58,428 bases of DNA from Elusimicrobiota bacterium (GTDB lineage: Bacteria > Elusimicrobiota > Elusimicrobia > UBA1565 > JACRDR01): positions 1-58,428 of the forward strand of contig JACQPK010000267.1 in the NCBI GenBank assembly GCA_016207565.1. The letters run 5' to 3'. A program made the translations under genes and the position numbers. The notes beneath the pieces were generated by a model that saw nothing but the letters and a program-made list of their open reading frames with translations, was not told the origin of the DNA and did not search any database. How positions within the stretch are numbered: the first letter of the stretch is position 1; each line of letters opens with the position of its first letter. Shown here piece after piece: positions 14,769-52,422 of the stretch.

Positions 14769-14799
14769 GTCTCATCGGGTGCGACGCACCCGATGAGAC
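14769..14799. repeat. 31-nt palindromic element, copy 1 (GTCTCATCGGGTGCGACGCACCCGATGAGAC)
   Basis: 14-bp perfect stem with a 3-nt loop. The outer flanks CGCTGAC/GTCAGCG (14761-14767 and 14802-14808) extend the palindrome across both convergent stop codons. Confidence 0.8.
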
Positions 14800-14802
14800 G
14801 GG

Positions 14803-15189
14803 TCAGCGGCGAGGGGAACGCGCGAAGGCCAGGACGTGGCCGTCCGGGTCCAGCACGTAACCCGCCTCGTCGCCCCAGTTGCGGAGCCGCAGCGGACTCA
14901 GCTCCCGCGCGCCGTTTGCGAGCGCGCGCTGATGGAGTTCGGGCGCGTCGGGCGTGAAGAGATAGACCTCCGCCCGCGGTACGCCGGCCGCGGAGGCGGG
15001 GTCGGCGATCGCGTCGCCCAAGAGGCGCTTGATGCCGGCGCTCGGCATGAGCCCGAGCACCGCGCCGTCGTTGAGCCTGAACTCGGTCATCCCGGGAACG
15101 TCGAGCTCCGGCTTCTTGCCTAGCACCGCGGCGTAGAACGCGGCGCTCGCCTTCTGATCGGAAACGTAGAGGATGAAGATCGCTTTCAT
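14803..15189 (-). CDS. VOC (glyoxalase/bleomycin resistance) family protein
   Basis: 128 aa; MKAIFILYVSDQKASAAFY... is typical of the VOC fold. ATGA overlap with the upstream GNAT gene. Confidence 0.8.
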   Translation of the reverse strand: MKAIFILYVSDQKASAAFYAAVLGKKPELDVPGMTEFRLNDGAVLGLMPSAGIKRLLGDAIADPASAAGVPRAEVYLFTPDAPELHQRALANGARELSPLRLRNWGDEAGYVLDPDGHVLAFARSPRR

Positions 15190-15629
15190 CGTGGCACCCG
15201 CCTCATGAACACCTTCTGCGTCTTCTCGAGCTCAAAGCCCCGGCGGAGATAGAAGCCGTGGGTCCGCTTGCGGATCACGTTGCAGCGGACGCGGAGCGCC
15301 GGCAAGCGCTTTTCGCGCGCCCAGCGCTGCGCGGCGCGCTCGAGCGCGGCGCCGAGCCCGCCGCTCCGGCAGCGCTCGTCCACGACGAGCCCGGCGATCT
15401 CCGCGTGCTCGGGCAGCTCGAGGAAGAGCTGCGTCCGCACATGGAGCCAGCCGCACGGCACGCCCTCGTGATCGGCGACGAAGACCGCGTGCCGCGGCGA
15501 GCGGATGATCCGGCGCAGTCGCGCGCGAAACGCCGCCGCCACGTCCGGATAGCCGAGCTGCGCCGCCAACCGCCGCAGCGCCTCCGCGTCCTTGAGCCCC
15601 GCCCGCCGGATCTTCGTGCCGCGATCCAA
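15186..15629 (-). CDS. GNAT family N-acetyltransferase
   Basis: Acetyl-CoA motif VVDERCRSGGLGAALERAAQRWA. The start was set to an in-frame TTG at 15629, just after the upstream stop; the start is uncertain. Confidence 0.7.
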   Translation of the reverse strand: MDRGTKIRRAGLKDAEALRRLAAQLGYPDVAAAFRARLRRIIRSPRHAVFVADHEGVPCGWLHVRTQLFLELPEHAEIAGLVVDERCRSGGLGAALERAAQRWAREKRLPALRVRCNVIRKRTHGFYLRRGFELEKTQKVFMRRVPR

Positions 15630-15639
15630 TCGAACGCCG

Positions 15640-16419
15640 CTAGGAGACGCGCTTCTTCTTCTTGAGGTAGGCGAACGGATGCCGGTCGGGGTCGACCGCC
15701 GGCGGGGGCGGCGGGGCCTCGCGGCGGTCCTCGGCGTAGTAGCGCTCCCAGAGCGCGGTCGGGTCGCCGCCGAGGAGGTAGCGCAGCAGGATCCACTGGT
15801 TGTAGAGCGTGTTCGTGATCGCGCCCCAGCGGCGCAGCCGGCGGGCGGCGGGCCGGATGTGCTCGGGCAGCACCTCGATGACGCCGAGCTTGCGGAGGCG
15901 GCGGCAGAACTCGACATCCTCCATCAGCGGGATCTCGGGGAAACCGCCGCACCTCTCGTAGACGTCCTTCGAGACGCAGAAACCCTGGTCGCCGTAGGCG
16001 AGGCCGAGGAACCGCGCGCGCCAGTTCTGGCCGTCGGCGATCAGCGTGTAGGGGAAGTGGTTGCCGTAGTCGACCGAGAACACCGTCGCCGCGAGCGGCT
16101 GGGCGTGCGTCCTCAGCCAGAACTTCTCGAGCCGCTCCTGCCAGTTGCCGGGCGGCTGCGTGTCGGCGTGCAGGAAGAAGAAAAGGTCGCCGGTCGCGAG
16201 CTTCGCCCCGGCGTGGAGCTGCGCGCCGCGGTTCGGCTTCTCGAGGACGCGGACCTGGTCGACGAAGTCGCGCGCGGCGTCGACGGTCTTGTCGGTCGAG
16301 CCGCCGTCGACGAGGATGATCTCCATGTGCGTCTCGTCGGAGATCTCGCGCAGGCGCTTGAGCGACGGGCCGATCTGCGGGCCCTCGTTCCAGGTCGGGA
16401 TGATGACGGAGAAGCGCAT
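15640..16419 (-). CDS. Family 2 glycosyltransferase
   Basis: MRFSVIIPTWNE...ILVDGGSTD...FLHADT is a GT2 signature. Confidence 0.85.
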   Translation of the reverse strand: MRFSVIIPTWNEGPQIGPSLKRLREISDETHMEIILVDGGSTDKTVDAARDFVDQVRVLEKPNRGAQLHAGAKLATGDLFFFLHADTQPPGNWQERLEKFWLRTHAQPLAATVFSVDYGNHFPYTLIADGQNWRARFLGLAYGDQGFCVSKDVYERCGGFPEIPLMEDVEFCRRLRKLGVIEVLPEHIRPAARRLRRWGAITNTLYNQWILLRYLLGGDPTALWERYYAEDRREAPPPPPAVDPDRHPFAYLKKKKRVS

Positions 16420-16420
16420 C

Positions 16421-17599
16421 TCAGGCGAGCGGCTTGAACACGAGGCCGGTCGTGATCTTCGGGAAGAAGTAGGTCGACTTCTGCGGCAGGAGCCCGATCC
16501 GCTCCACCGCTCGGCGGATATCCGCGACGCTCGCGGGCTTCACCAAGAGCGCCGCCCCCTTCGATTCGCGGGCGAGCCGGACGGCCTCCGCGGCCTCATG
16601 CGTGTACTTGAGGTGATGCGGGTCCACGCCGGACGTCACCGACCGGGCCAGGTACTCGACGCAGAGCCCGCTCTTGGCGCCCTCCGGGGACTTCGGCACG
16701 GCGAGCCAAAACGCGCGCGGCGCCTCGAAGAGGCCGAAGGCGTACGGGGACGGGTGCGCGTCGAGCACCTCGAGCAACGCGGTCAGGCCGGGCTTGGGCG
16801 TCAGGCGGCAGCGCTCGCGCGCGCGCGCCTGCGCCTCGCCCGGCGGAGAGACGACGCGGTGCGTGGGCAGCACCAGAAGCCCCGCGTCCTCTTCCGCGCA
16901 GACGTAAACGAGCATCGTCGACGTCGCGGGCGTCTTCGTCCGGCGGAAATACTCCTTCGCGACCTCGAAGCGATGGTGGCCGTCGGCGATGAGCAGCGTC
17001 TTCGGCCCGAGCGCCCGCTCGAGCGCGGCGACCGTCGAGGGCTCGTCGACGCGCCACACCTTGAAGCGCGACCCGTCGGAGCTCGTCCCGGCCTCATCGG
17101 ACCGCGCCGACTTGGCCCGCCGCAGCAGCGCGCGCACGGCGCCGCCGGCGTCGCGGAATAGCCCGAAGATCGGACTGGTGTTCACCTTGAGCGCGGCGAG
17201 CTGCTTGAGGCGGTCCGCCTTGGGCTTCGAAAGGGTCTTCTCGTGGCGACGGACCGTCCTCGGACCCGCGCGGCGCAGGTCGAGGGCGCAGAGCACGCCG
17301 GTCCGCACGTAGCGGCGGCCCCCGTAGGCGAAGGCCTGCTCCACGACGTAGTAGGCGGGCGCGTGGTCGGTCCGCACGATGCCCCGGTCGTTCCAGCGGC
17401 GCCACACGCCGCCCGCTTTCCGGTAGCGGTCGCCGTTGCCGGAGGGCAGCTCGAGATGGATCGCGTTGAAGGGAAGGCGGCGCAACCGGTCGGCCAGCCG
17501 GGCCCCGATCACGTCGTAGGGCGGACAGACGGCGCGATCCATGGCGACCCGCTTGCGGTCGTAGCGGACACCCCGGAACGGACGCATCAGCGCAGGCAT
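16421..17599 (-). CDS. DUF1015 domain-containing protein
   Basis: RPFRGVRYD N-terminus and ADGHHRFEVA motif. The start was taken at MPALMRPF; the upstream part of the 532-aa ORF belongs to a kinase relic. Confidence 0.8.
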   Translation of the reverse strand: MPALMRPFRGVRYDRKRVAMDRAVCPPYDVIGARLADRLRRLPFNAIHLELPSGNGDRYRKAGGVWRRWNDRGIVRTDHAPAYYVVEQAFAYGGRRYVRTGVLCALDLRRAGPRTVRRHEKTLSKPKADRLKQLAALKVNTSPIFGLFRDAGGAVRALLRRAKSARSDEAGTSSDGSRFKVWRVDEPSTVAALERALGPKTLLIADGHHRFEVAKEYFRRTKTPATSTMLVYVCAEEDAGLLVLPTHRVVSPPGEAQARARERCRLTPKPGLTALLEVLDAHPSPYAFGLFEAPRAFWLAVPKSPEGAKSGLCVEYLARSVTSGVDPHHLKYTHEAAEAVRLARESKGAALLVKPASVADIRRAVERIGLLPQKSTYFFPKITTGLVFKPLA

Positions 17600-17633
17600 C
17601 GACTTCCGATGATTCCGAATTCCGTGGAGTGTG

Positions 17634-17827
17634 TCAAGAACCCGGCTCCAACTCGATCCAGAAGCGGGTCCCCTTTCCCGGTTCGGTCTCGTAGCCGATC
17701 CGGCCGCCCGGTTCCACAGCAGAAAACGGCCCGCCGTATCCGCCACGACCACTCCTTCGGCGACGTGGTGGACGATGAGCTGCAAGAGCTCGAGCTTGTC
17801 GACGAGCTGCAACCGCGGAGCTTCCAT
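17634..17827 (-). pseudogene. Relic of a PAS sensor histidine kinase with an internal deletion and frameshift
   Basis: One frame encodes a PAS N-terminus: MEAPRLQLVDKLELLQLIVHHVAEGVVVADTAGRFLLWNRAA. A second frame then encodes only the extreme HATPase C-terminus, GGRIGYETEPGKGTRFWIELEPGS*. Everything in between is missing. Confidence 0.5.
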
Positions 17828-17878
17828 GGCCTCCCCGCTCGCCCTTAGGATACCACACGATTTCGTACAATCGACGGG

Positions 17879-19006
17879 ATGCGCCTGCTGCTTTTCGGGG
17901 GCAGCTTCGACCCGCCCCACCGAGGCCACAAGGCCCTGCTGGAGGCCGCGCACCGAACCCTCCGCCCGGACCGAACCCTCGTCCTGCCGGCGTGGCTCTC
18001 TCCCTTCAAGTCCGGCCACGGGGCGCCGGCCCGCGACCGGCTCGCCATGGCGAGGCTCCTCGTCCGGGGCCTGGAGCGCGCCTCGGTCGACGGGTTCGAG
18101 ATCGCCCGAGGCCGCCGGACCTTCGCCTATGAGCTGCTCCGGGAGGCCCGCCGCCGCTATCGGGGAGCCGAGCTATGGTTCTTGATCGGCTCGGACTCGC
18201 TGGCGACGCTGCCGGGCTGGAAGCGTCCCGGCGAGCTCCGGCTCGGCGTCTCCTGGCTGGTCGGCCACCGGACGGGCGCGCCCGCCCGGCCCCCGGAGGG
18301 CTTTCGGGTGCGCTTCCTGGCGGGCCGGTTCCCCGACGTCAGCTCGACGGAGCTGCGCGCCCGGCTCTACGCGGGCGAGGACTGGGGCGAGCTGCTGCCG
18401 AAACGCGTCGCGCGCTACATCCGCAAGCGGCGCCTCTACGGGCTGGCGGCGCACGAGGAGCTGGCCCGCGTCCTGTCGAAGGACCGCTATGCCCACACGC
18501 TCGGCGTGGCGCGGCTGGCCGCCGAGCTCGCTCGCCGTCACGGGCACGACGCCGGCGCCGCGGCGCTCGCGGGGCTCCTCCACGACTGCGGCCGGCGATT
18601 CGACCCTGCGGGGATGGCGCGCTACGCCCGCGAGCGGAGGCTCCCGGTGCCCGAGCGCGAGCGCACGCTGCGGGAGGCGCCGCTCCTGGCGCACGCCTAC
18701 ATCGGCGCCGACCTCGCCCGGCGCCGGTTCGGCGTGACCGATCCCGCGGTGCTCGGCGCCATCGCGCACCACACGCTCGGCAAGCCCCAAATGACCGCCT
18801 TCGAGCGGCTGCTCTACGTGGCGGACCTCGCCTCCCCGGACCGCGGCTTCTCCACGGCCGACCGGATCCGGCGCGTCGCGCTGCGGGATCTCGACCGCGC
18901 GTTCGTCGAGGCGGTGCAAACGAAAGAGTACTGGACCCGAAAGCGCGGCGGCTGGCTCCATCCGATGACGAGCAGGGTCCGGCGTTGGGCCCGGACGCTG
19001 CGCTGA
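17879..19006 (+). CDS. nadD: Fusion protein: nicotinate-nucleotide adenylyltransferase (NadD) + YqeK-type HD phosphohydrolase
   Basis: N-terminal LFGGSFDPPHRGH (HxGH) and SSTELR motifs. The C-terminal half has RYAHTLGVA...LLHDCG...HH, typical of YqeK HD domains. Confidence 0.85.
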   Translation: MRLLLFGGSFDPPHRGHKALLEAAHRTLRPDRTLVLPAWLSPFKSGHGAPARDRLAMARLLVRGLERASVDGFEIARGRRTFAYELLREARRRYRGAELWFLIGSDSLATLPGWKRPGELRLGVSWLVGHRTGAPARPPEGFRVRFLAGRFPDVSSTELRARLYAGEDWGELLPKRVARYIRKRRLYGLAAHEELARVLSKDRYAHTLGVARLAAELARRHGHDAGAAALAGLLHDCGRRFDPAGMARYARERRLPVPERERTLREAPLLAHAYIGADLARRRFGVTDPAVLGAIAHHTLGKPQMTAFERLLYVADLASPDRGFSTADRIRRVALRDLDRAFVEAVQTKEYWTRKRGGWLHPMTSRVRRWARTLR

Positions 19007-19007
19007 T

Positions 19008-19862
19008 ATGCGCTCGTTGAACTCGTGGGCGCGTCCGGTCGAGCTCGCGCTCGTCGTCGTCGGGCTCTCGGTCGCCGTGGCGCTCGGCGCGCTCGAGAGG
19101 CGCTCCGGGCTCGCCGCGAGCCTGCGCGCCGGGGCTCCGGTCGTCGCCCGCCTGAGCTTCCGCGGCGAGACCCGCGGCTCGTCTTTCGTCCTCGTCTACC
19201 ATCCAAGCTCGAGAACGCTCGATATCGCCGACCTCGCAGGCAAGCCCCTGACCGCCGCCGACCCCGACGGCGTCCTCCCGCCCCCGGCGTTCGAGGCCTC
19301 GGTCGACGTCCTGGGCGAGGCGCCCGCCGACGCGCTGGCCGTCCGCCGCCTCCTGGACTCGTGGCCCCGCGGCCTGCGCTTCTGGTGGGAGGCCGCCCGG
19401 CCGTCGCGGCAGGGAGCGCTCGCGGGGACGTCCGCCTACGATCGCGCGCTCATCGCGCTCGAGGCCTATCGCCTCGCCCCGGGCTCCGTCCGGCCCGTCT
19501 GGCCTCCGGCGAGCGCCTACCGGCGGGAGCTCTGGGCGAGCCTCCTGCGCGACGCGCCGGCCTCCGCCGACCCCGCCCAGATCCGCGTCGAGGTGCTCAA
19601 CGGCTCCGGCGAGTCCGGGCTGGCCCTGAGCGCGACGAAGGCCCTGCGCTGGCATCAGGTGGACGTCATCGACTACGGAAACGCCGACGACCACGGCGAG
19701 ACCCACCTCGTCGACCGCGCGGGCCGGCCGTCGGACGCCCGGCGGGTAGCGGAGCTCCTCGGCTGCCCCGACGCGGACGTCTGGACGCAGTACGACCCCT
19801 CGGCGACGGCGCCCGTCGCCCTCGTCTTAGGCCGGGATTTTCGCCGTTGCCGACGGCTGTAA
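19008..19862 (+). CDS. LytR_C domain-containing membrane-anchored protein
   Basis: N-terminal TM segment, and C-terminal IRVEVLNGSGESGLALSATKAL...VIDYGNAD pattern. Confidence 0.6.
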   Translation: MRSLNSWARPVELALVVVGLSVAVALGALERRSGLAASLRAGAPVVARLSFRGETRGSSFVLVYHPSSRTLDIADLAGKPLTAADPDGVLPPPAFEASVDVLGEAPADALAVRRLLDSWPRGLRFWWEAARPSRQGALAGTSAYDRALIALEAYRLAPGSVRPVWPPASAYRRELWASLLRDAPASADPAQIRVEVLNGSGESGLALSATKALRWHQVDVIDYGNADDHGETHLVDRAGRPSDARRVAELLGCPDADVWTQYDPSATAPVALVLGRDFRRCRRL

Positions 19863-19875
19863 TCCCGGCTATACT
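19847..19875 (+). promoter_or_regulatory. Promoter candidate TTGCCG-17-TATACT upstream of pilT (leadered; SD GGAAGGAG)
   Basis: Hexamer spacing read directly from the sequence. The -10 ends 35 nt before ATG 19911, leaving a leader of roughly 29 nt. Confidence 0.35.
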
Positions 19876-19910
19876 CCGCTTCTGAGACAATCCGGGGAAG
19901 GAGCTACTCC

Positions 19911-21002
19911 ATGGAACTCGTCGAAATCCTAAAGACCGCAGTCGACTCGGGCGCCTCCGACATCCACATCGTCATCGGCAAGCCGCCGATGATGCGCGCG
20001 GACGGAGACATCGCCGAGATCCCCGGCTTCTCGGTGATCAACGCCGAGGAAGCCAAACGCCTGATCTACTCGATCCTGTACGAAGAGCAGCGGGCGAAGT
20101 TCGAAGAGCACTGGGAGCTCGACTGCTCGTTCGCCGTTTCGGGTTTCGCGCGATTCCGCGTCAACGTCCTCCTCCAAAAGAACGGCGTCGAGGCGGTCAT
20201 GCGCGTGATCACCTCGAAGATCCCGACGCCCGAGCAGCTCCGGCTGCCGAAGGCGGTCGTCGACTTCGCGGACCTGCCGCGAGGCCTCGTCCTCGTCACC
20301 GGCGCGACCGGCTCCGGCAAATCGACCACCCTCGCGTCGATCATGGAGCTGATCAACCAGAAGTACAAGTGCCACGTGCTCACGGTCGAGGACCCGATCG
20401 AGTTCGTCTATGAGTCGAAGTCCTGCATCTTCCGCCAGCGCGAGGTCGGCCAGAACACGAAGAGCTTCAACGACGCCCTCAAGCACGCGCTGCGGCAGGA
20501 CCCCGACGTCATCTTAGTCGGCGAGCTTCGGGACCTCGAGACGATCCAGCTCGCCCTGACCGCGGCGGAGACGGGCCACCTCTGCTTCGGCACGCTGCAC
20601 ACGCAGGACTGCCCGTCGACGATCGATCGCATCATCGACGTCTTCCCGCCGCACCAGCAGATGCAGGTGCGCGTCATGCTCTCGACCGCGCTTCAGGGCG
20701 TCGTGACCCAGCTCCTCATCCCCCGCAAGGACGGGCAGGGCCGGGTCGCCTGCCGCGAGATCATGGTGGCGACCCCGGCCATCAACAACCTGATCCGCGA
20801 AGGAAAGACGCACATGCTGTATCAGGCGATCGACACGGGAGCCAAAAACGGCATGATCTCGATGGACAAGGCGCTCGCGGAGCTGGTCCGCCAGGGGCTC
20901 ATCTCGCCCGAGGAGGCGCTCACGCGCGCGCACAGCCTCGAGTCCCTGAAGAGCCTCATCGGCTACACCGGGAGCTCGTCGAAAGCGACGCTGATGGGCT
21001 GA
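19911..21002 (+). CDS. pilT: Type IV pilus twitching motility ATPase PilT
   Basis: Walker A GATGSGKST. PilT-type GELRDLETI, HLCFGTLHT and AINNLIREGK motifs. Confidence 0.92.
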   Translation: MELVEILKTAVDSGASDIHIVIGKPPMMRADGDIAEIPGFSVINAEEAKRLIYSILYEEQRAKFEEHWELDCSFAVSGFARFRVNVLLQKNGVEAVMRVITSKIPTPEQLRLPKAVVDFADLPRGLVLVTGATGSGKSTTLASIMELINQKYKCHVLTVEDPIEFVYESKSCIFRQREVGQNTKSFNDALKHALRQDPDVILVGELRDLETIQLALTAAETGHLCFGTLHTQDCPSTIDRIIDVFPPHQQMQVRVMLSTALQGVVTQLLIPRKDGQGRVACREIMVATPAINNLIREGKTHMLYQAIDTGAKNGMISMDKALAELVRQGLISPEEALTRAHSLESLKSLIGYTGSSSKATLMG

Positions 21003-21006
21003 GGCC

Positions 21007-21912: not shown

Positions 21913-21929
21913 TTAACTAAGATAGAGGC

Positions 21930-22313
21930 GTGAGGCGAGAGTTCAACCCCTTCAAGCAGCTTGCCGTGGGCTGCGCGCGCGCCGCCTACGACAAGAAGGC
22001 CGAGGACGTCGTCCTGGTCGACGTGCGGAAGTCGAGCATCGTCGCGGACTTCATGCTGCTCGTCAGCGTGACCTCGCCGGCCCATCTCGAGGCCGTGCAG
22101 GCAGCCATCGAGGACGTCATGGAGCCCTCGGGCATCGAGCTGCGCCACCGCGACGGCTCGCATTCCGCGCTGTGGCGCGTGCTCGACTACGGCGGCCTGC
22201 TCGTGCACCTCATGCACCAGGAGGCGCGGCACTTCTACGGGCTCGACAAGCTCTATCACGACCAGCCGAAGCAGCGGTGGATGCCGGTCGCGCGAAAAGC
22301 GAAAGCCGGATGA
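21930..22313 (+). CDS. rsfS: Ribosome silencing factor RsfS
   Basis: DKKAEDVVLVDVRKSSIVADFMLLVSVTS...WRVLDYGGLLVHLMHQEARHFYGLDKLY matches the RsfS/IojAP pattern. GTG start. Confidence 0.85.
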   Translation: MRREFNPFKQLAVGCARAAYDKKAEDVVLVDVRKSSIVADFMLLVSVTSPAHLEAVQAAIEDVMEPSGIELRHRDGSHSALWRVLDYGGLLVHLMHQEARHFYGLDKLYHDQPKQRWMPVARKAKAG

Positions 22314-23953: not shown

Positions 23954-23954
23954 C

Positions 23955-26033: not shown

Positions 26034-26043
26034 ATGCCCCCCT

Positions 26044-28553: not shown

Positions 28554-28559
28554 ACCGGC

Positions 28560-36849: not shown

Positions 36850-37608
36850 ATGGCGCACGCGGACACGATCTTCGCGTACTCCGATGGAGCCTGCTCGGGC
36901 AACCCAGGGCCCGGCGGCTGGGGCGTCGTCCTGATCCTGCCGGAAGGCCGCGTCCGCGAGCTCGGCGGCGGCGAGCGCCCCACGACCAACAACCGGATGG
37001 AGCTCCTGGGCGCGATCGCGGCGCTGCGCGCGGTCGCCGACCGCCCGGAGCCCGTGAAGCTGTTCACGGACTCCTCCTACGTCGTCAACGGCGCCACGCT
37101 CTGGGTCCACGGCTGGCGGCGGCGCGGCTGGAAGACGATGGAAGGCAAGGACGTCCTCAACCGCGACCTCTGGGAGACGCTGACGGAGCTATCGGCCGCC
37201 CGGCGCGAGCGCCTCAAGTGGGTCCAGGTGAAGGGCCACGCGGGCCACGACCTCAACGAGCGCTGCGACGAGATCGCGGTCGCCTACACGAAGGGGAAGC
37301 GCCCCGAGCTCTACGACGGGCCGGCGATCGGCTGCGGCTACTCGCTGCTGGAGCCGGGGGCGGAGCTGCTGCGCAGCGCGGTGCGAAAACCCTCCGGTCC
37401 GATCCGCGAGAAACCGAAGGGCGGCTACGGGACCAGGCGCCGTTGCGCCGCCGCCAGCTGGTACCTGAGCCTCGTGGCGGGCAAGTTCGAGAAGCACGCC
37501 ACCTGGCCCGAGTGCCAGGCGCGCGTCAGCGGCGTGAGTGGCGCCAGGTTCAAGAAGGTCACCTCCCCCGACGAGGAGGAGTCCATCCGCCGCGCCTGGG
37601 GCTGTTAA
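36850..37608 (+). CDS. rnhA: Ribonuclease HI with C-terminal hybrid-binding (Cauli_VI/RNase H1 N-terminal-like) domain
   Basis: RNase H core SDGACSGNPGPGGWG...TNNRMEL...TDSSYV...HAGHDLNERCDEIA. The C-terminal WYLSLVAGKFEKHATWPECQARVSGVSGARFKKVTSPDEEES matches the HBD pattern. Confidence 0.85.
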   Translation: MAHADTIFAYSDGACSGNPGPGGWGVVLILPEGRVRELGGGERPTTNNRMELLGAIAALRAVADRPEPVKLFTDSSYVVNGATLWVHGWRRRGWKTMEGKDVLNRDLWETLTELSAARRERLKWVQVKGHAGHDLNERCDEIAVAYTKGKRPELYDGPAIGCGYSLLEPGAELLRSAVRKPSGPIREKPKGGYGTRRRCAAASWYLSLVAGKFEKHATWPECQARVSGVSGARFKKVTSPDEEESIRRAWGC

Positions 37609-37649
37609 AAAAGTAAACCCTGGGGACTGTCCCCAACGTTTACTTTTTT
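37607..37649. terminator. Bidirectional intrinsic terminator between convergent genes
   Basis: AAAAAAGTAAAC...TGGGGA-ctg-TCCCCA...GTTTACTTTTTT. This is a GC hairpin flanked by an A-tract and a T-tract that also pair with each other. Confidence 0.75.
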
Positions 37650-37651
37650 GC

Positions 37652-39466: not shown

Positions 39467-39474
39467 CCGCGCAG

Positions 39475-42205: not shown

Positions 42206-42224
42206 GACCCCGCCATTCTACTAC

Positions 42225-43208: not shown

Positions 43209-43312
43209 GCCTCCAGGATGACCGATTCGGTGAGCCGCTTGATGAGGCCAAGGTGCTAGCCGGAAAGGAGGCTTTGGGACCAGCCGGAACCAAAGATCCG
43301 GCACCCATATTT

Positions 43313-43978: not shown

Positions 43979-43980
43979 CG

Positions 43981-46900
43981 TCACGATTCTATCACTTGGC
44001 CGGTGCGCAAGAACACGAGCTTGAACCCGCACGGCTTGCCGAGGGCACGCCGGACGGCCTCGCGATAGACCTCGGCCTGCACCGCGTGGCGTTTGACGAG
44101 CGCCGCAAGCTCCCGATCGGACACGCGCTCGGTCTTGTAGTCGGCGATCCAGAGCTTGCCGCCGGCGCGATACAGGAGGTCGATCGAGCCGCGGACGACC
44201 TGGCCGCCGTCCGCGTAGATGAACGGCAACTCCCGGCCCAGGATCACCGCCCGGGCGAGCTCGCGCGCCGCCTTCGACGCGATGAAGTCCCCGAGGATCG
44301 CGCGGCACTCGTCGCCGATCGCGGCGGCGTCGGCCGCTCCCTCGCGTTCGACCCTGGCGACCTCCCGCGCGACGGCCTCCCGCAGTCTCACCTGGTGCGT
44401 CGCACCGGATGAGACGGCGAAGTCCCAGCGCTCGAGCACGCGGTGGCACACGACGCCGACGAGCCGGGGCGAGGCGCCGGCCGGCGCGTCCTCGGCCCGC
44501 TCGAAGCCGGCCCGCGCCGGCGGCTTGTCCTCGAGGGCCGCGAGACGGGTCGCGCTCGTCGACGCCGGGCGCTCGGCCGCGGCCGCCGACGCCCATCTAG
44601 CCTTCCAGAGCGCGCCGAGCCCCGTGAGGTCGATCGCCGTCGCGGGAGCGGCGCGCGACGGCGCGGACGGGGCCGGCTCCTCGTCGAGATAGGCGATCGG
44701 GACCCGCCGGCCGCCGAGCGTGAGCGCCTCCGGCGCGTCGTCGCCCGGCCAGGCCCCCGCGCGCGCGAGCAAGCCCGCGAAGCTCGCCTCGCTCCCGGGG
44801 GAGAGCGAGCCCGCGAGGATCAGGCGGTCGCGCGCGCGCGTCATCGCGACGTAGAGCAGCCTCACGCCTTCGTAGCGCTCCCGGCGCGCCTCCTCGAGCT
44901 TCAAAAACCCCATCGCCGCGTCGGCCGCCTTGGCCTTCGGCAGCGAGAGGCCGACCGCGCCCGCCGTCCAATCGACCCTCGAGGCGGGCGGGTCGCCTCC
45001 GCCCGGAGGCGCCGCGAGGTTCGGCAGGATGACCACGGGCCACTCGAGGCCCTTCGACTTGTGGACCGAGAGGATGCGCACCGCGTCGAGATGCTCGTCG
45101 GCGAGCGGGCTCTCGCCTTCCCGGGCGAAGTCCTTCATCTCCCGCTCCACGAGGCCGATGAACTCCTTGAGCGTCGCGCCGCGCTCCTCGGCGGCGCGGG
45201 AGGCGAGCCGCGCGAACTTCAGCAGGTTCGAGGCGGTCTGGTCCCCGTAGTAGGCCGCCGAGGCGAGCTCGAGGAGGAACGTCTCGCGGAAGACGCGGGC
45301 GACGAAGTCGCCGAGCGGCTCGCGCCCGGCCCGCTCCCGGAGCCCCCGCAGGGCCGCATACAGCGTCGTCAGCCGCGCGCGGGCCGCCGCGCCCAGGGCG
45401 CGAGGCGGATCGCGGCGATAGTCCATGCCGGACGCCTCGCGCAGCTCGAGCAGCTCCCGGTCGTCGAGGCCCGCGAGCGGCGAGCGCAGAAGCCCCGCCA
45501 TCGACACGCGGTCGCCGGGCTCGTCGAGGACCCGGAGGAGGTTGAGCAGGTCGAGCGCCTCCTGCGTGCCGTAGAAGTAGCGGTCGGCCTCGACGGCGTA
45601 GGGGAGGCCGGCGCGCTTCAACGCGTCAAGGTAGACCTCGAGCGACGTCGTGGTCCGAAGCAGGATCGCGACGTGCCGGAACTCATACGCCCTTCCCGGC
45701 CCCGCGTTTTCCGCGATCCACCGCGCGATCCATTCGGCCTCGCGCCCGCGGCCGTCGTCGGCTCGCTCCCCGTCGCGCAGCCGCGCGACGACGAGCTCGA
45801 CGGCCGTGCCGTCGAGCGCGGCCCTCATCGGCTGGATCGCCAAATATCCCGGCTGCAGCCCGGCCTCGAGCGTCATGAGCCTCTCGTGCACCGCGTTCAC
45901 GGGATCGACGACGCCGTCGTGGCCGCGGAAGCTCGTCGTGAGGTCGCATCGCTCGGCCCCTTGCGCGAGCAGGAGCTCGGTGAAGCCGTGGTAGGCGCGC
46001 ATGTCGGCGCCGCGAAAGCGGTAGATCGACTGCTTCGGGTCGCCGACGACGAAGAGCTTCCCCGCCTCGAGGCTCAGCTCGCGCCAGGAGGAGGCGCGGG
46101 CCCCCCGGCGCTCCCCGAGGTAGAGCAGCAGCTCCCCCTGCACCGGGTCGGTGTCCTGGAACTCGTCGATAAATAACGCGTCCCAACGAGCCTTGAGCGC
46201 CTCGCGCACGGCGGGGTGGTCGCGCACGAGGTCGCGCGCGCGCCGGAGCAGCCCGAAGTACGAGACGAGGCCGCGGCGCCGGTGCCGCTCGCGCACGCGC
46301 GCCGAGAGGCCCTCGACCAGCTCGACGGCCCGCCGCACGAGCCGCTCGCCGTCGCCGGAGGTCGCGGCGCACAGGACCGTCGCCTCCCGGTAGGCCGCCT
46401 CGTCGGGATCGCCCTCCCAGGCCTTCGGCCACGTGTAGGCCTTGACCTTCCGGAACTCGTAACGCTCCGGCCAGGCGCCGCGGCCCGCGCACGCGGAGGC
46501 GAGGTCCTTGAGCCGGGCGGCGGCCTCGGCCGCCCCCTCCAGGATCTTGCTGGCGCCGCCGGGGCGCGGCTTGGAGCCGAAGCCCTCGAGCGTCGCGGCG
46601 AGCCTGCCCAGCCGCTCGCGCATCGCGGCCGTCGCGCCCGGCGCGGCCTGGCAGGTCTCCTCCTCGCAGAGCGACCGGGCCAGCGTCTCGAGGTCCGCCA
46701 AGCCGACCAGCGGGAGCAGCGAGAGCCACAGGCCCCGCCGGGGAGCCGCCTCGCCGAGCTCCGCGTCGAGCCACGCGGCCCACTCGCTCTCGAAGAGCTC
46801 CTGCAGCCCGGGGCCGGTGTCCACGTCGAAGCCGGGGTCGACGCCCGCCTCGAGCGGGTGGAGCCGGAGCACGTGCGAGGCGAAGTGGTGGATCGTGCCG

Positions 46901-47316
46901 ATCATGGCGCGATCCATCCGCTCGAGCGCCGAGGCCGCGACCGCGCCCACGCGCTCGGGCGCCAGGCCGAAACGCCCGCGCGCCTCGGCGAGGAGCCGGC
47001 GGGCCTCGTCGCGCCGCGATCCGGAGGGAAGCGCGTCCTCGAGCTCCGCGAGCACGTCGGCGAGGCGCCCCGAGAGGCGGAGCTGCACCTCGCCCGCCGC
47101 CTTCTCGGTGAAGGTGAGCGCCACGAGCCGGGTCAGGTCGACGCCCTTCCCCTTCGGCCCGCCGGCCAGGAGCGTGAAGAGGATGCGGTCGGTCAGGAGC
47201 GTCGTCTTCCCCGTACCGGCGCCCGCCTCGACGACGACGTTGCGGCGCAGCTCGAAGCGGGCGCGGTCGCGGGCGGCCTGGTCGGGAGGAAGCACGGAAG
47301 CCCTCATAAGGTCCAT
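43981..47316 (-). CDS. UvrD/AddA-like helicase with C-terminal PD-(D/E)XK nuclease domain
   Basis: Walker A AGAGTGKTT, UvrD/Rep helicase motifs, and C-terminal GSIDLLYRAGGKLWIADYKTE. Confidence 0.88.
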   Translation of the reverse strand: MDLMRASVLPPDQAARDRARFELRRNVVVEAGAGTGKTTLLTDRILFTLLAGGPKGKGVDLTRLVALTFTEKAAGEVQLRLSGRLADVLAELEDALPSGSRRDEARRLLAEARGRFGLAPERVGAVAASALERMDRAMIGTIHHFASHVLRLHPLEAGVDPGFDVDTGPGLQELFESEWAAWLDAELGEAAPRRGLWLSLLPLVGLADLETLARSLCEEETCQAAPGATAAMRERLGRLAATLEGFGSKPRPGGASKILEGAAEAAARLKDLASACAGRGAWPERYEFRKVKAYTWPKAWEGDPDEAAYREATVLCAATSGDGERLVRRAVELVEGLSARVRERHRRRGLVSYFGLLRRARDLVRDHPAVREALKARWDALFIDEFQDTDPVQGELLLYLGERRGARASSWRELSLEAGKLFVVGDPKQSIYRFRGADMRAYHGFTELLLAQGAERCDLTTSFRGHDGVVDPVNAVHERLMTLEAGLQPGYLAIQPMRAALDGTAVELVVARLRDGERADDGRGREAEWIARWIAENAGPGRAYEFRHVAILLRTTTSLEVYLDALKRAGLPYAVEADRYFYGTQEALDLLNLLRVLDEPGDRVSMAGLLRSPLAGLDDRELLELREASGMDYRRDPPRALGAAARARLTTLYAALRGLRERAGREPLGDFVARVFRETFLLELASAAYYGDQTASNLLKFARLASRAAEERGATLKEFIGLVEREMKDFAREGESPLADEHLDAVRILSVHKSKGLEWPVVILPNLAAPPGGGDPPASRVDWTAGAVGLSLPKAKAADAAMGFLKLEEARRERYEGVRLLYVAMTRARDRLILAGSLSPGSEASFAGLLARAGAWPGDDAPEALTLGGRRVPIAYLDEEPAPSAPSRAAPATAIDLTGLGALWKARWASAAAAERPASTSATRLAALEDKPPARAGFERAEDAPAGASPRLVGVVCHRVLERWDFAVSSGATHQVRLREAVAREVARVEREGAADAAAIGDECRAILGDFIASKAARELARAVILGRELPFIYADGGQVVRGSIDLLYRAGGKLWIADYKTERVSDRELAALVKRHAVQAEVYREAVRRALGKPCGFKLVFLRTGQVIES
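44385..44415. repeat. 31-nt palindromic element, copy 3 (inverted orientation, 2 stem mismatches), inside the addA-like CDS
   Basis: GTCTCACCTGGTGCGTCGCACCGGATGAGAC, compared with copies 1 and 2. It encodes VSSGATHQVRL in the addA reading frame. Confidence 0.7.
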
Positions 47317-47336
47317 TACTCCTGAGTTAACCCTTC

Positions 47337-47463
47337 AACGGAGGAACGCAGAGGCACGCAGAGGAAGTAACGAAGAGGCGCGCAAAGGACAGCACTGATT
47401 GCGGATCCGTCCTCCGCGTTCCTCTCTGTAAATTCCCTTCGCGTACCTCTGCGTCCCTCCGTT
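47337..47463. repeat. 127-nt imperfect inverted repeat (arms ~55 nt) in the addB-addA intergenic region
   Basis: The left arm AACGGAGGAACGCAGAGGCACGCAGAGGAAGTAACGAAGAGGCGCGCAAAGGAC pairs with the reverse complement of the right arm, GAACGGAGGGACGCAGAGGTACGCGAAGGGAATTTACAGAGAGGAACGCGGAGGAC. ACGCAGAGG is tandemly duplicated in the left arm. Confidence 0.7.
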
Positions 47464-47482
47464 CTTACCGTAAGAGCGATGT

Positions 47483-50400
47483 TCATAGGGGCAGCTCCCG
47501 CCGCTCGAGGAACTCGGCGAGCTCCCGGGACGCGTCGGCGCGGCGCGCGGTCGGCCCGTGCGACTTGCGGCAGACGGCCGCGAAGGCGCAGCGCCCGCAG
47601 GCCCCATGCATCGACTCGTCGCGCGCGATCATGAACTCGCCGCGCTCGATCCCGGCGACGAAGCCCTCGAGGCGGTCCCAGAAGCCCGGCCGGAGCGCGC
47701 GCCACTCCTGGGGCTCGAGCGCGACGATCGCCGGCTCGCCCGGATGTTCGGGCGTCCCCTCGAGGCAGTACAGCGCGGCGCCGGCGACGTCACCCTCCCG
47801 GCCGAGGCCCATGGCCAGCGCGAGCTCGAGGTAGATCGGCGGCTGCAGTTCGCCCATCCGCTTCAGCCGGTCGCGGAGCTTTGCCGGCCCGCGCCCGGAC
47901 TTGTAATCGACGATCCAGAGGCGGCCGTCGGGGGCCGTGTCGATGCGGTCGGCGCGCCCGCGCAGCGCGATCCCGCGCGCGCTCCCTTCGAGCGGATGCT
48001 CGAAGAACCGGGGCACGAGCCCGGTGAGCCTGACGCGCTCGACGTCGAGCGCCGCGAGCCGGCGCAGCCGGAGCTCCAGGCGCGCGCGCGTCGCCTCCCA
48101 CACCACGGGATAGACGCCGAGCTCGCGCCAACTCACGGCGCCCAGGACCTCGCGGAGGGCTCGCTCGAGGCGCGGCGTGAAATCCGCGCGGGCGTCCTGC
48201 CAGAAGCCCTCCTCGGCCAGGGAGCGGTGGAAGCGCTCGAGCACGTCGTGCGCGAGCGTGCCGCGGGCCGCGGGCGCCACCTCGCCACGCTCGGCGGGCT
48301 CCGCCGGCTCGCCGAGGCCCAGGACGCGGCCGGCGAAGTACTGGAACGGGCAGGCGAGGTACTCCTCCAGGGCGGAAGGCGCGTAGCTCGGAGCCTCGGC
48401 GGCGCCGCGCCTCGACGCGGGCCCGACCAGCCCGTCGAACGCGCCGGGCGCCCCCGGGCGGTTGAGCAGGGCGACGCGCTCGCGGCACGCGTCGAGCAGT
48501 CGGGCGTCGAAGCCGAGCCCGGCGAGGCCGGCGCTCGAGCCGGCGCCTCGCGAGACCTCGAGCGCGGCCTCCTTCGGCGAGAGCCGGGCCTTTCCGGCGA
48601 ACTGGAGCTTCTCGAACGGCCGCCGCGGCACGCGCACGGCACGCTCGAGCTCGGTGCCGGCCGCGCGGCAGAGCTCCCGGAGGTAGATCGACGGGACCTG
48701 CGCGCGGCCGTCGTCGCCCGACCGCGGATAGACGCAGGTCAGGCTCTCGACGGCGGAGCCGGCGAGCAGCGTGAAGAGGAGCCTCTCCTCGGCGTAGCCC
48801 TCGAGCTTCGGCAGGATCCAGTACCCGCCCGGGTGCTCGAGGCGCGAGCGCACCGAGTCGGACACCAGCGGGTCCTCGCGGACCTGCCGCGGGAATACGC
48901 GCTCCTGCAGGCCGATCAGGAAGAGGTGCTTGAAGGACTCGCCGCGGGCGGACATCGCGTCGAGCACGCGCACGCCGAGGTTCGGCCCGGCCGGCGGCGA
49001 CTGGGCGCGGCGAAGCTTCTCCTCGAGCGTCTCGAGGAACTCGGCGAAGTCGGCGCCGGGCGCGGCGGGCCCGAACCCCGCCAGGGCGTCCACCGCCTCG
49101 AGCACCGCGTCGAAGGCCTCGCGGGCGGGCCCGGGCTCCGGTCGCGCGAAATGCGCCTCGAGCGCGCGCCGCGCGTGGGCCGCCATCGCCGGCCAGGGAT
49201 CGGCCGGCAGGCCCGCCGGCCCGGCGAGCTCGCGGTCGAGCCCGCGCACCCAGCGCCACAGCGACGCGACGTGCGCCGCCGGGATATTGGGGCCGTGCTC
49301 CTCGGATCCGAGCGGGAGGTCGCGCTCGATCCACGGGGCCAGACGCCCCTCCCACTGGAGGAGCCCCGAGTGGAGCCCGAGCTTGCGCACGATCGCCGGC
49401 CAGTCGTGGACGCCCTCCTCCGAGGCGCGGAGGCGGCAGTACGGCGAGGAGACCAAGTCGAGCACGCTTCTCGCGGGGAACTCGCGGCGGCGCAGGGTGA
49501 GCAGCCCGAGCGCGAGCCGCGCCGCCGGATGGCGCAGCAGGGGACCTCCCGCGTCCGTCCAGTACGGCACGCCGTTCTCGGCGAACACCTCCGCCACCGC
49601 CGCGCGGTAGGGCTCGAGCGTCCGCGCGACGACGCCGATGTCGGCGAAGTCGGGAGCATCCGGGCGGGCGCGGAGCGCCAGGATCTCCTTGGCGACGAGC
49701 CACACCTCGTCGCGGGCGCCCGAGGCGCTGAAGACGCGCAACGCGTCCGGTGCGGGCGCGGCCTGGGCGCCCGGGACGAAGAGCGCGTCGGAGGCCGCGC
49801 CGAGCGCGAGCGCGGCCGGCTCGGCGGGGAGATGCCGGGCCTTCGCGCGGCCGAGCTTCACCTTCAGGAACCGCTCGGCGAACGCGAGTCCCGGACGGCC
49901 CGGGACGTAGGGGAAGAAGACCGTGCACGCGAAGGCGCCGGCCATGGCGTCGAAGAAGTCCGCCTGGGCGCCCGTGAGGTCGTAGAAGCCGTAGTAGAGG
50001 AACTCGGCGTAGCGCGCGAGCGTCTCGGCCTGGCCGTCGCTCACCGCGTCCGCCGCCTCGCGGGCCAGCCCCGACGGCGGGAGGCACCCGAGCGTCGCGA
50101 GGCGCCGCCGGTAGCCGGACTCCAGCGCGAGCAGCGCCGAGAGCCTGCGCCGCTCGTCGGGCTCGAGCGGCAGCCGGTCGAGGTGTTCGCCGAAGCCGTC
50201 CGGGTCGACCCCCGCGTCGATGAGGTCGCGGAGGCTCGAGCGGTAGGCGGCCGCGAGCCCGCGGGAAGGCCGGGCGCCGGCGTCGGCGAGGAGGCGGTCG
50301 AGCACCTTGTCGTGGAAGAGCCCGTCGCCCACGAAGCGGGCCGAGGGCCCGCCCCGCGCCTCGAGCGCCTCCAGGGCAAGGCTATGGAAGGTGTGGAATC

Positions 50401-50581
50401 GGACGTTGAGGAGGGCGAGCCCGCCCTCGTGGGCGGCGAGCCGCTCGAGGCGTTCCGCGAGCCTGCGCGACGGCGCGACGACCGCCACGGCGCGTCCGGG
50501 GCCGGGCTTCGACTCCTTGAGCGCCGCGAGGAACGCGCGCTCCAGCGACGGGAAGGCCCCGCAGACGACGCGCAGGCTCAC
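47483..50581 (-). CDS. AddB-like PD-(D/E)XK nuclease/inactive helicase subunit with Fe-S Cys cluster
   Basis: The GTG start overlaps the upstream stop (GTGA). Nuclease region RADRID...LWIVDYKSG. The Cys pattern (CPFQYF upstream, plus C-terminal CGRCAFAAVC) is typical of the AddB iron staple. Confidence 0.8.
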   Translation of the reverse strand: MSLRVVCGAFPSLERAFLAALKESKPGPGRAVAVVAPSRRLAERLERLAAHEGGLALLNVRFHTFHSLALEALEARGGPSARFVGDGLFHDKVLDRLLADAGARPSRGLAAAYRSSLRDLIDAGVDPDGFGEHLDRLPLEPDERRRLSALLALESGYRRRLATLGCLPPSGLAREAADAVSDGQAETLARYAEFLYYGFYDLTGAQADFFDAMAGAFACTVFFPYVPGRPGLAFAERFLKVKLGRAKARHLPAEPAALALGAASDALFVPGAQAAPAPDALRVFSASGARDEVWLVAKEILALRARPDAPDFADIGVVARTLEPYRAAVAEVFAENGVPYWTDAGGPLLRHPAARLALGLLTLRRREFPARSVLDLVSSPYCRLRASEEGVHDWPAIVRKLGLHSGLLQWEGRLAPWIERDLPLGSEEHGPNIPAAHVASLWRWVRGLDRELAGPAGLPADPWPAMAAHARRALEAHFARPEPGPAREAFDAVLEAVDALAGFGPAAPGADFAEFLETLEEKLRRAQSPPAGPNLGVRVLDAMSARGESFKHLFLIGLQERVFPRQVREDPLVSDSVRSRLEHPGGYWILPKLEGYAEERLLFTLLAGSAVESLTCVYPRSGDDGRAQVPSIYLRELCRAAGTELERAVRVPRRPFEKLQFAGKARLSPKEAALEVSRGAGSSAGLAGLGFDARLLDACRERVALLNRPGAPGAFDGLVGPASRRGAAEAPSYAPSALEEYLACPFQYFAGRVLGLGEPAEPAERGEVAPAARGTLAHDVLERFHRSLAEEGFWQDARADFTPRLERALREVLGAVSWRELGVYPVVWEATRARLELRLRRLAALDVERVRLTGLVPRFFEHPLEGSARGIALRGRADRIDTAPDGRLWIVDYKSGRGPAKLRDRLKRMGELQPPIYLELALAMGLGREGDVAGAALYCLEGTPEHPGEPAIVALEPQEWRALRPGFWDRLEGFVAGIERGEFMIARDESMHGACGRCAFAAVCRKSHGPTARRADASRELAEFLERRELPL

Positions 50582-51435
50582 GGCGTCGGCCTCGGGCTCG
50601 GGCTCGGCGTCGGCTGCCCTCGCGCCGTGTCGGTGGAGGCGGCGGCGCCGGCCGCCCCGCCGGCAAAGCGCTCCCCGTACGCCGAGACGCGCCGGCCGCA
50701 CTCCGCGTCCTTTCGGCATTCCGCCAGCGCGCGCTCGCATTGGCCGCCGGGGCCGAGCCGCCGGCAGATGTCGAGGAAGTCCGGGCCGGAGCCGGGCTGC
50801 ACCCAGTGGCCTTCGATCCTCGGATCTCCGCGCCCGCGCGCTCCCGCCGCCTCGACCCCGGGCCTAGACGCCGCCGCGCCTCCCGCCGCGGGGCCCTGGC
50901 CGCCGGGGGCGTTCCCTTCGCCCGGCTCGACGGCGTAGAGGCCGTAGACCTTGCCTTCGCCGGCCGCCGCTTTCGCCGCGGCCGCGGCCTCGCGGACGGA
51001 GACTCCGAGCCCCGGCCGGGAGGCGAGCCGCTCGGCCAATGCCCGAAAGCCTGCCTCCCGGGAGGCGCTCGCGAACAGCGCGGCGAAGTCCCGCTCGGCC
51101 GTCAGGTCGCGGAGGAAGTCCCGCGCGGTGGGGCCGGCCTGCCGGCGGGCCCGGCTCTGCGCGGCGCGCTCGACGAAACGGTTCCAGAGCGTCCGCAGCC
51201 GGGGCTTGGCGGCGAACTCGCGCGCGAAGGCGCGCGCCGCGGGGTCGTCTTGCTCTCGCCCGAGAAGACGCGCGAGCTCCTCAAAAGAGAGCGGCTCCTC
51301 CTTCGGCGGCGGCGGCGGAGCGGAGGCGCGGTCGTCGGGCGCGGGCGGCGAGAGCCTGGGCGCGAGCCACCACCCGACGAGCAGGCCGAGCAGCGAGAAC
51401 GCGAGGAGCGCGACGAGGAGGCCCGTGCGGCGCAT
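50578..51435 (-). CDS. Membrane-anchored low-complexity protein with C-x8-C-x6-C-x5-C motif
   Basis: Start taken at MRRTGLLVALLAFSLLGLLVGWW. Cys motif CRRLGPGGQCERALAECRKDAEC is encoded at 50698-50766. Confidence 0.6.
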   Translation of the reverse strand: MRRTGLLVALLAFSLLGLLVGWWLAPRLSPPAPDDRASAPPPPPKEEPLSFEELARLLGREQDDPAARAFAREFAAKPRLRTLWNRFVERAAQSRARRQAGPTARDFLRDLTAERDFAALFASASREAGFRALAERLASRPGLGVSVREAAAAAKAAAGEGKVYGLYAVEPGEGNAPGGQGPAAGGAAASRPGVEAAGARGRGDPRIEGHWVQPGSGPDFLDICRRLGPGGQCERALAECRKDAECGRRVSAYGERFAGGAAGAAASTDTARGQPTPSPSPRPTP

Positions 51436-51533
51436 TGCGTTTCTATCCCGTGCGTGCCTGGCCTCACCGTTACGCCGCAGATCGAGGCCTGGCACGCTAC
51501 CTCACGGATGATATCAAGTATAATCGCCGCTCC

Positions 51534-51950
51534 ATGAAGGAGATGGCCCGTCTCGCGCGGCTCGTCGCGAAGCTCCGGTCTCCGACCGGCTGCCCTTGGG
51601 ACCGGGCGCAGGACCATGTCTCCCTGATCCCGTATCTAAAGGAAGAGGCGCGCGAGGTCGAGAAGGCGCTCCGGCGCGGAGAGTGGCACGACATCGAAGA
51701 CGAGCTCGGCGACCTGCTCCTGCAGATACTCCTCCACGCGCAGATCGAGGACGAGCAGGGGCGCTTCGACCTCGAGGACGTCGCCCGCAGCCAGTATCTG
51801 AAGCTCCGGCGCCGGCACCCGCACGTCTTCGGCGGGACGAAGTTCAAGACGCCCAAGGAAGTCTTGCGGAACTGGGACCGGATCAAGTCGGTCGAGCGAG
51901 GGCGGCGCGCGGCCGACGTCCGGCGGCGCCTCGCGCGGCGGCGCGCGTGA
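51534..51950 (+). CDS. mazG: MazG-type nucleoside triphosphate pyrophosphohydrolase
   Basis: CPWDRAQDH...EEAREVEKAL...ELGDLLLQILLHAQI...RRHPHVFG. TATAAT lies 9 nt before the ATG. Confidence 0.85.
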   Translation: MKEMARLARLVAKLRSPTGCPWDRAQDHVSLIPYLKEEAREVEKALRRGEWHDIEDELGDLLLQILLHAQIEDEQGRFDLEDVARSQYLKLRRRHPHVFGGTKFKTPKEVLRNWDRIKSVERGRRAADVRRRLARRRA

Positions 51951-52390
51951 CGGGCGCGGGCGTCGCGCTCCGCTGGGTCGGCCACGGGACGCCCGAATAC
52001 GAGCGCCTCGTCGATCTGCGGCGGGAGATCCTCCGCAAGCCGCTCGGACTCGTCTTCACTCCGGAGCAGCTCGCCGCCGAGTCGGACCAACTGCACCTGG
52101 GGGCGTGGGACGGAGAGCGCGCGCTCGGCTGCCTGGTCCTGCGCATCGCGAGCGCCGATTCGGTCGTGATGCGGCAGGTCGCCGTCGCGGCCGAGGCTCA
52201 GCGCCGCGGGATCGGGAAGCTCCTCGTCGATGAGTCGGAGCGCGAGGCGCGGCGCCGGGGACTGGCGCGGATGAGCCTCCACGCGCGCGAGACGGCGGTC
52301 CCGTTCTACGAGCGACTCGGCTACCATATCGAAGGCGAGCCCTTCACCGAGGTCGGGCTCCCTCACCGCGAGATGGCCAAAACCCTGTAG
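51947..52390 (+). CDS. GNAT family N-acetyltransferase
   Basis: GTGA overlap with mazG. Acetyl-CoA motif RQVAVAAEAQRRGIGKLLV. Confidence 0.8.
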   Translation: MTGAGVALRWVGHGTPEYERLVDLRREILRKPLGLVFTPEQLAAESDQLHLGAWDGERALGCLVLRIASADSVVMRQVAVAAEAQRRGIGKLLVDESEREARRRGLARMSLHARETAVPFYERLGYHIEGEPFTEVGLPHREMAKTL

Positions 52391-52391
52391 A

Positions 52392-52422
52392 GTCTCATCT
52401 GGTGCGACGCACCAGATGAGAC
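52392..52422. repeat. 31-nt palindromic element, copy 2 (GTCTCATCTGGTGCGACGCACCAGATGAGAC)
   Basis: It differs from copy 1 only at the two paired stem positions (G:C changed to T:A). It starts 2 nt after the GNAT stop. Confidence 0.8.

Follow-up and report, generated by a model that had tools for sequence, protein, structure and literature searches.

How does a 31-nucleotide (nt) palindrome come to stand just behind the stop codons of two genes, and in frame inside a third, within a single stretch of bacterial DNA? The stretch, hereafter the window, is the 58,428-nt contig JACQPK010000267.1 of an Elusimicrobiota bacterium (GenBank assembly GCA_016207565.1), and the palindrome is termed family B below. 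Family B is best read as a dispersed palindromic repeat of the REP (repetitive extragenic palindromic) type that has recently spread within one Elusimicrobiota species, a reading to which a probability of about 0.75 is assigned. Sequence comparison supports its spread as mobile or copied DNA, because the copies are nearly identical, their flanks are unrelated, the relatives searched lack them, and empty sites corresponding to some of them can be found.

A degenerate pattern search allowing up to three mismatches recovered exactly three copies in the window, where and as the initial annotation had described them (Table 1), and none in 100 dinucleotide-preserving shuffles of the window. Copies 1 and 2 differ solely at stem pair 9/23, which is G:C in the one and T:A in the other, and copy 3 combines a central T with two non-Watson–Crick positions, C·A at 7/25 and T·G at 9/23. 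Across the family as a whole, all 31 positions are nearly invariant. An A precedes the 31-mer in 22 of 24 copies and a T follows it in 16 of 23, so the unit is about 33 nt long rather than 31, with the form A-GTCTCATCTGGTGCG-A/T-CGCACCAGATGAGAC-T, and only the palindrome is repeated. The element is therefore described here as a palindrome of 31–33 nt with a stem of 15–16 base pairs (bp) around a single central base. Its predicted RNA folds range from −25 to −40 kcal/mol, with z-scores from −3.5 to −9.7. The fold of copy 1 (−40 kcal/mol, z −9.7) belongs to a longer palindrome, CGCTGAC...GTCAGCG, which takes in both neighbouring stops, a nesting that had been recognized from the outset. No T-tract follows any family B copy, and a terminator scan returned no terminator-like site at copies 1 and 2, in agreement with the earlier statement that these are not classical intrinsic terminators. 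The whole window contains no match to Rfam 15 at or above the gathering score.

Table 1 Coordinates and features of family B, its neighbours, its empty sites and the other palindrome families. Plain positions refer to the window; C numbers denote contigs of the same draft genome, and G001 the only other genome of the genus.
Feature	Position	Strand	Description
Family B copy 1	31-mer 14769–14799, unit 14768–14800		GTCTCATCGGGTGCGACGCACCCGATGAGAC; centre A on + strand; G:C at pair 9/23
Family B copy 2	31-mer 52392–52422, unit 52391–52423		GTCTCATCTGGTGCGACGCACCAGATGAGAC; consensus sequence; centre A on + strand
Family B copy 3	44385–44415	−	GTCTCACCTGGTGCGTCGCACCGGATGAGAC; two differences from the consensus; in frame inside addA
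DJ-1/PfpI family gene	13864–14766	+	TGA at 14764–14766, 2 nt before copy 1
Glyoxalase-fold gene	14803–15189	−	Convergent with the DJ-1/PfpI gene; stop at 14803–14805, 3 nt after copy 1
AddA-like helicase-nuclease gene	43981–47316	−	Intact frame, 1,111 residues; Pfam UvrD-helicase, UvrD_C, PDDEXK_1; hosts copy 3
GNAT acetyltransferase gene	51596–52390	+	TAG at 52388–52390, 1 nt before copy 2
Family A copy in window	37606–37650		GTAAACCCTGGGGAC-T-GTCCCCAACGTTTAC (TAAAAAAGTAAACCCTGGGGAC-T-GTCCCCAACGTTTACTTTTTTG); exactly between convergent stops
Compared site, copy 1	C151:14769		Ancestral stop at same position in G001, where the DJ-1 orthologue ends CGC TGA C; element starts 2 nt after
Compared site	C473		Two stops overlap as TTAG in G001; here the 31-mer has a TA on either side, and its terminal G makes each a TAG
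Compared site	C271		Stops abut in G001 (TGACTA); here the element lies between the stops
Compared site	C171		Ancestral stop at same position in G001; here the element starts 1 nt after the stop
Family A			GTAAAnnnTGGGGAC-N-GTCCCCAnnnTTTAC, often with A-/T-tracts; about 140–153 copies; 12 in G001, next to none in the rest of the relatives searched
Family C	e.g. C82:3297–3339		ACGCAACACGGTGCC-N-GGCACCGTGTTGCGT; 10–20 copies
Family D	e.g. C468:13467–13546		80-nt palindrome TAGGGTCAGACCCCTTGTCAGGATTC...; 6 copies
Family E	e.g. C308:5714–5777		GTTACTCCCGGTACCGGGAGTAAC, zero-nt centre; 4 copies

The window is one contig (C151) of a draft metagenome-assembled genome (MAG) comprising 519 contigs and 4.95 Mb, with 70% GC, 77.5% completeness and 5.4% contamination. 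Its source is a high-GC Elusimicrobiota species that is otherwise unsampled, because the homologues of its AddA-like protein, named as Elusimicrobia UvrD-helicase or AddA proteins, carry the names of Elusimicrobia or Elusimicrobiota MAGs and the best of them reaches only 63% identity. The three copies of the window turn out to belong to a REP-like family of 24 loci on 21 contigs, a number that, like the count for family A, is a minimum in a fragmented MAG whose contigs are broken by palindromes (contig ends hold one family B copy, which is cut off there, and 13 family A cores). Fifteen copies show no mismatch to the pattern and the others show one to three differences. The contigs carrying them have a uniform GC fraction of 0.66–0.72, and six also carry the main repeat family of the genome, so the copies belong to one organism. 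A profile search with nhmmer --max, with its filters off, returned the same 24 loci and nothing weaker; there are hence no old, decayed copies in the assembly. With a central A in 14 copies and a central T in the other 10, orientation is random. Comparison of all flanks against each other found no shared sequence, so nothing beyond the palindrome is repeated, and a larger MITE (miniature inverted-repeat transposable element) or insertion sequence (IS) enclosing the palindrome was rejected on the same comparison.

Forty relatives from the order, among them the lone same-genus genome, G001, gave no family B copy at two or fewer mismatches. Metagenome contigs and viral contigs, scanned once each, gave no match, and one scan of species-representative genomes for the exact inner 25 nt gave a single match, in Methylobacterium sp. 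10. Given the relatives and collections searched, family B is therefore young and specific to its species. The Methylobacterium match, at positions 4917–4945 of NZ_KI912577.1, is a lone palindrome, GTTCATCGGGTGCGTCGCACCCGATGAAC, which shares the inner 25 nt of copy 1 and differs in its outer arms; it is judged to be a chance or unrelated occurrence.

Four family B sites were compared with their counterparts in G001 (Table 1). In these the ancestral stops have been kept, and the element starts 0–2 nt past the stop. At C473, both protein ends are unchanged in length relative to G001, and the TA...TA flanking the copy corresponds to a single shared TA. The stop preceding copy 1 is ancestral, because the DJ-1 orthologue of G001 has the same end. 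No empty site was obtained for copy 2, whose GNAT neighbour lacks a clear orthologue in four relatives.

Real genes were recognized by high GC at third codon positions (GC3) among crude gene calls, and 15 of the 24 copies lie 0–5 nt from the stop of a high-GC3 gene, a distance within which only 3.5% of intergenic positions fall. Several copies supply part of the stop with their own first bases (TA-G, TA-A or TG-A), and seven or eight fill convergent junctions, among them copy 1, which occupies the junction of the DJ-1/PfpI and glyoxalase-fold genes. The initial annotation had placed copies 1 and 2 within 3 nt of stops, and the distances in Table 1 bear this out. Altogether 22 of the 24 copies are extragenic and two are intragenic; seven have other locations, either upstream of genes or within long spacers, three of these upstream of promoter-like motifs. 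Copies occur singly; even the nearest two on one contig are more than 9 kb apart. Proximity to stops is shared by other repeats, since 76% of family A and 56% of family C copies also lie within 5 nt of one, and it thus characterizes these repeats in this genome and not just family B. According to the crude gene calls, convergent gene pairs across the genome have a median spacer of 16 nt, and 159 of 509 overlap; without palindromes, most convergent pairs would lack room for a terminator. No common target motif and no consistent target duplication was found across the 24 copies, the TA...TA arrangement occurring only at C473.

Two local observations concern the flanks of individual copies. Five of 46 flanks (C79, C229:17743, C293, C171 and window positions 44416–44420) carry the pentamer CCGCA directly 5′ of the 31-mer, which is above the expectation from composition; the pentamer may be left over from a longer element or reflect a weak target preference. 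Copy 2 is directly adjoined by TATACT (within 52423–52438), followed after 7 nt by a GTG at 52436, and thereby occupies the place of the −35 element and spacer of a would-be leaderless-type promoter for the downstream membrane-protein gene. The true start of the GNAT acetyltransferase gene on the other side of copy 2 is probably further downstream than 51596.

Copy 3 was originally described as an in-frame segment of an addA-like gene encoding VSSGATHQVRL between the helicase and nuclease parts. The frame and the peptide are as described; its location is different, as the peptide (residues ~968–978) falls within the Pfam PD-(D/E)XK nuclease match itself (residues 921–1092), in a loop of the nuclease domain between a conserved CHRVLERWDF block and a GSIDLLY...DYKT block. 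The expectation that AddA orthologues would lack the segment held in alignment, where the insert is present in 0 of 57 homologues and the length of the loop is nearly fixed among them. A search with the C-terminal 259 residues of the protein gave no sequence-level match in the PDB. The second intragenic copy, at C64:1951–1981, encodes VSSGATHPMRL in the linker between the KR and DH domains of a polyunsaturated fatty acid (PUFA)-synthase-like multidomain protein with tandem ACP, KR and DH domains. Both intragenic copies have the same orientation and are read in the same frame, and both host frames are intact.

The exchange of G:C for T:A between copies 1 and 2 had been taken as a sign of selection on the stem, a view that did not survive comparison of the whole family. 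Most copies have T:A at pair 9/23, which is compensated once (in copy 1) and mismatched in four (those on C7, C64 and C276, and copy 3), so one-sided variants are commoner at this very pair, which looks like a recurrent polymorphism of the arm. Among 13 distinct variants, two pairs show a double change (9/23 in copy 1, 6/26 in C271) as against 20 unpaired cells; of 500 shuffles, 102 have at least this many doubly changed pairs and 34 attain the covariation score. Because covariation is no better than in shuffles, the conservation of the stem is attributed mainly to the youth of the copies, and selection on pairing is not supported by the data.

Family B is not the only palindrome of this genome. 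A de novo survey of palindromes identified at least four further families (A, C, D and E; Table 1), and families A, B and C are alike in build, each being a perfect palindrome with a single central base that is usually A or T. In the family A copy of the window, an A-tract and a T-tract flank the stem in a manner resembling a two-way terminator. The initial annotation had pointed to a possible REP-associated tyrosine transposase (RAYT) gene elsewhere in the genome, and six genes with the Y1 transposase domain PF01797 are indeed present (on contigs C25, C406, C201, C386, C127 and C468), but none of them adjoins family B. Five of the six keep the HUH and YIxxNP motifs, as read in their sequences. 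The RAYT-like proteins score 58–79 bits against the REP-associated tyrosine transposase model NF047646, whose cut-off is 80, and have a DnaA-C-like tail. Inverted copies of family A stand on either side of those on C386, C127 and C468, in the classical layout of a REPtron, and the one on C25 is followed by half of a family D element. Genes with PF01797 occur in 38 of 41 genomes of the order.

Two further features accompany the RAYT-like genes. The gene on C406 is without the first His of HUH and the catalytic Tyr (the corresponding segments read NAVHIV and QVHLEP), and downstream of it (10077–10382) a family A palindrome lies between direct repeats AAAGCC[T/A]GGCACC, similar to the family C apex. 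The motif GGGAACTTTT, followed after about 20 nt by TATAnnT and, after a further 6–8 nt, by a start codon, stands upstream of RAYT-like and of unrelated genes (on C386, C127, C468, C261, C276 and C277). It is probably a common promoter type of the organism, with little or no leader; the notion that it links the RAYT-like genes to the family B copies of C261, C276 and C277 was rejected, as it also precedes unrelated genes.

The kind of element to which family B is assigned is already known; the family itself and its occurrence in this lineage are new. REPs are short dispersed hairpins that form several species-specific families per genome. They are found a few bp away from where open reading frames (ORFs) end, be these convergent or same-direction, and at convergent junctions under 20 bp separate them from either ORF end (Di Nocera et al. 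2013, PMC3733652). Their termini can supply TAG stops, and intragenic, in-frame REPs occur in repair genes of the recBCD and UvrD types; some REP families bracket RAYT genes, while others have no dedicated transposase (PMC3733652). The text of that survey contains no occurrence of the name Elusimicrobiota (PMC3733652).

Family B resembles REPs in being a short (20–40 bp), dispersed and species-specific hairpin in a genome with several such families, in lying mostly downstream of ORFs or in convergent junctions with its ends forming part of stops, and in having an in-frame copy in a repair gene of the RecB/AddA type. The genome as a whole resembles a REP/RAYT system in holding RAYT-like Y1 genes, some of them bracketed by inverted REPs of family A. 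Such systems, or REPtrons, are reportedly the subject of work by Nunvar in 2010, Bertels and Rainey in 2011 and Ton-Hoang in 2012. Family B differs from REPs in being a perfect palindrome with a 1-nt centre, where REPs have an imperfect stem with a loop and a bulge; its copies are single, unlike the inverted pairs of REP doublets (REPINs), and its copy number, 24, is modest. It is likewise unlike a MITE, being without consistent duplication and without an IS with matching ends.

Two other groups of bacterial hairpins offer partial parallels. Rickettsia palindromic elements (RPEs) are also discussed in the REP survey (PMC3733652). Family B shares with them an in-frame palindrome that is tolerated in loops or linkers of functional proteins, to which it adds a short peptide; it differs from them in sequence, to which it has no similarity, and in size and placement, RPEs measuring ~100–150 bp and being often intragenic, whereas family B measures 31–33 nt with 2 of 24 copies intragenic. 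RPEs are said, after Ogata et al. in 2000, to be selfish DNA inserted in frame in protein-coding genes. In Escherichia coli, REPs that lie no more than ~15 nt from a stop reportedly lower expression of the upstream gene through ribosome stalling and trans-translation (work of Liang, Rudd and Deutscher in 2015). The family B hairpin similarly starts 0–5 nt past the stop, within the footprint of a terminating ribosome, and a comparable lowering of expression is a possibility suggested by this analogy.

Under the reading of family B as a REP-type repeat, a RAYT-type Y1 transposase would copy the palindrome as a single-stranded hairpin. That a RAYT is the copying agent we infer from genomic company only; the enzyme would be either one of the six PF01797 proteins acting in trans or the product of a cognate gene that may sit in the 23% of the genome not assembled. 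The insertions that survive would be those that leave genes intact, namely past stops, between abutting convergent stops and in frame in flexible loops, and the stable hairpin would then probably act, incidentally, as a 3′-end structure on the flanking transcripts.

Several observations weigh against this reading. Family B ends in (A)GTCTC...GAGAC(T) and so lacks the tag of the GTAG and CGTC REP super-families; the 5-mers beside it vary from copy to copy, and GTAG is seen only at copies that a TAG stop happens to abut. In the assembled 77% of the genome, no PF01797 gene lies on any family B contig and no RAYT flanked by family B was found, unlike in a REPtron. Since it has no such tag and no cognate RAYT was found, family B is classed as REP-like in behaviour, with no named super-family assigned to it. 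Selective filtering of random insertions seems too weak to produce the ~20-fold enrichment at stops, so a targeting mechanism or positive selection for a 3′-end function would also be at work; the exact placement at stops could stem from targeting, from positive selection for a 3′-end hairpin where convergent genes have no spacer, or from both. Simple insertion also fails to explain the lengths of the two host proteins. The AddA loop has gained only six residues although the element encodes ~10–11, and the C64 linker is only one residue longer than that of the G001 orthologue, whose linker is unrelated. In both intragenic cases the element seems, from these alignments, to have replaced some ancestral codons, a pattern resting on two cases.

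In a more specific scheme, family B and the other palindrome families would not be random insertions thinned by selection; they would be delivered precisely to stop sites (0–2 nt beyond a stop, or between convergent stops that overlap), serve there as two-way terminators without a U-tract in a lineage that leaves no other spacer between convergent genes, and overwrite codons where they enter genes. As a whole this scheme is doubtful. If it were true, the overwriting of codons would point to templated patch repair or conversion, unlike cut-or-peel-and-paste transposition. A related proposal, also unlikely, is that the hairpin is kept mainly for a function in RNA, as a two-way terminator without a U-tract, a 3′-end stabilizer or a ribosome-stalling structure, with mobility being only the route of delivery. 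It draws on the 15 copies placed 0–5 nt after real stops, on the seven or eight in convergent junctions that are spacerless in G001, and on the high stability of the RNA stems; with so short a median spacer between convergent genes, an inserted two-way hairpin could be of benefit, and the tracts flanking the family A stem are like those of a two-way intrinsic terminator. Family B itself, however, has no T-tract and gives an empty terminator scan, its stem covariation is not significant, seven of its copies lie upstream of genes or in long spacers, and termination would do harm at the two inside genes.

The two remaining explanations are very improbable. A dyad-symmetric site for a dimeric DNA-binding protein, either an operator or a nucleoid-organizing site selected at ~24 places, would account for the perfect two-fold symmetry about a single central base and for the near-invariance of the 31 positions. 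The copies, however, stand at the 3′ ends of genes and not at promoters, and 31 nt of near-identity are what recent copying typically leaves, unlike operators; moreover, the two in-frame copies lie in unrelated genes whose orthologues are without them, and G001 has no copies though the flanking genes are conserved. Alternatively, family B could be a minimal MITE consisting of both terminal inverted repeats of an IS630/Tc1-type DDE transposon that targets TA, given the TA...TA of C473 against the single TA of G001, the A...T flanks of most copies and one IS630-like DDE_3 gene in the genome. Neither a consistent target duplication among the 24 copies nor solitary half-sites bounding any transposase gene were found, and the end region of the IS630-like element is dissimilar to the family B arm; an IS630 parent element was rejected because its ends are unrelated to that arm.

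Recent spread as a REP-type repeat therefore remains the preferred account of family B, and as such the finding opens no new mechanism. In practical terms, palindromes of this kind fragment the assembly and can confuse the annotation of gene ends, and they could serve as strain markers. For the biology of the group, it records REP-type hairpin repeats together with RAYT-like genes in high-GC Elusimicrobiota, a phylum known almost only from metagenomes, and the 24-copy burst in a single species, set beside empty sites in a relative of the same genus, shows where such elements end up.

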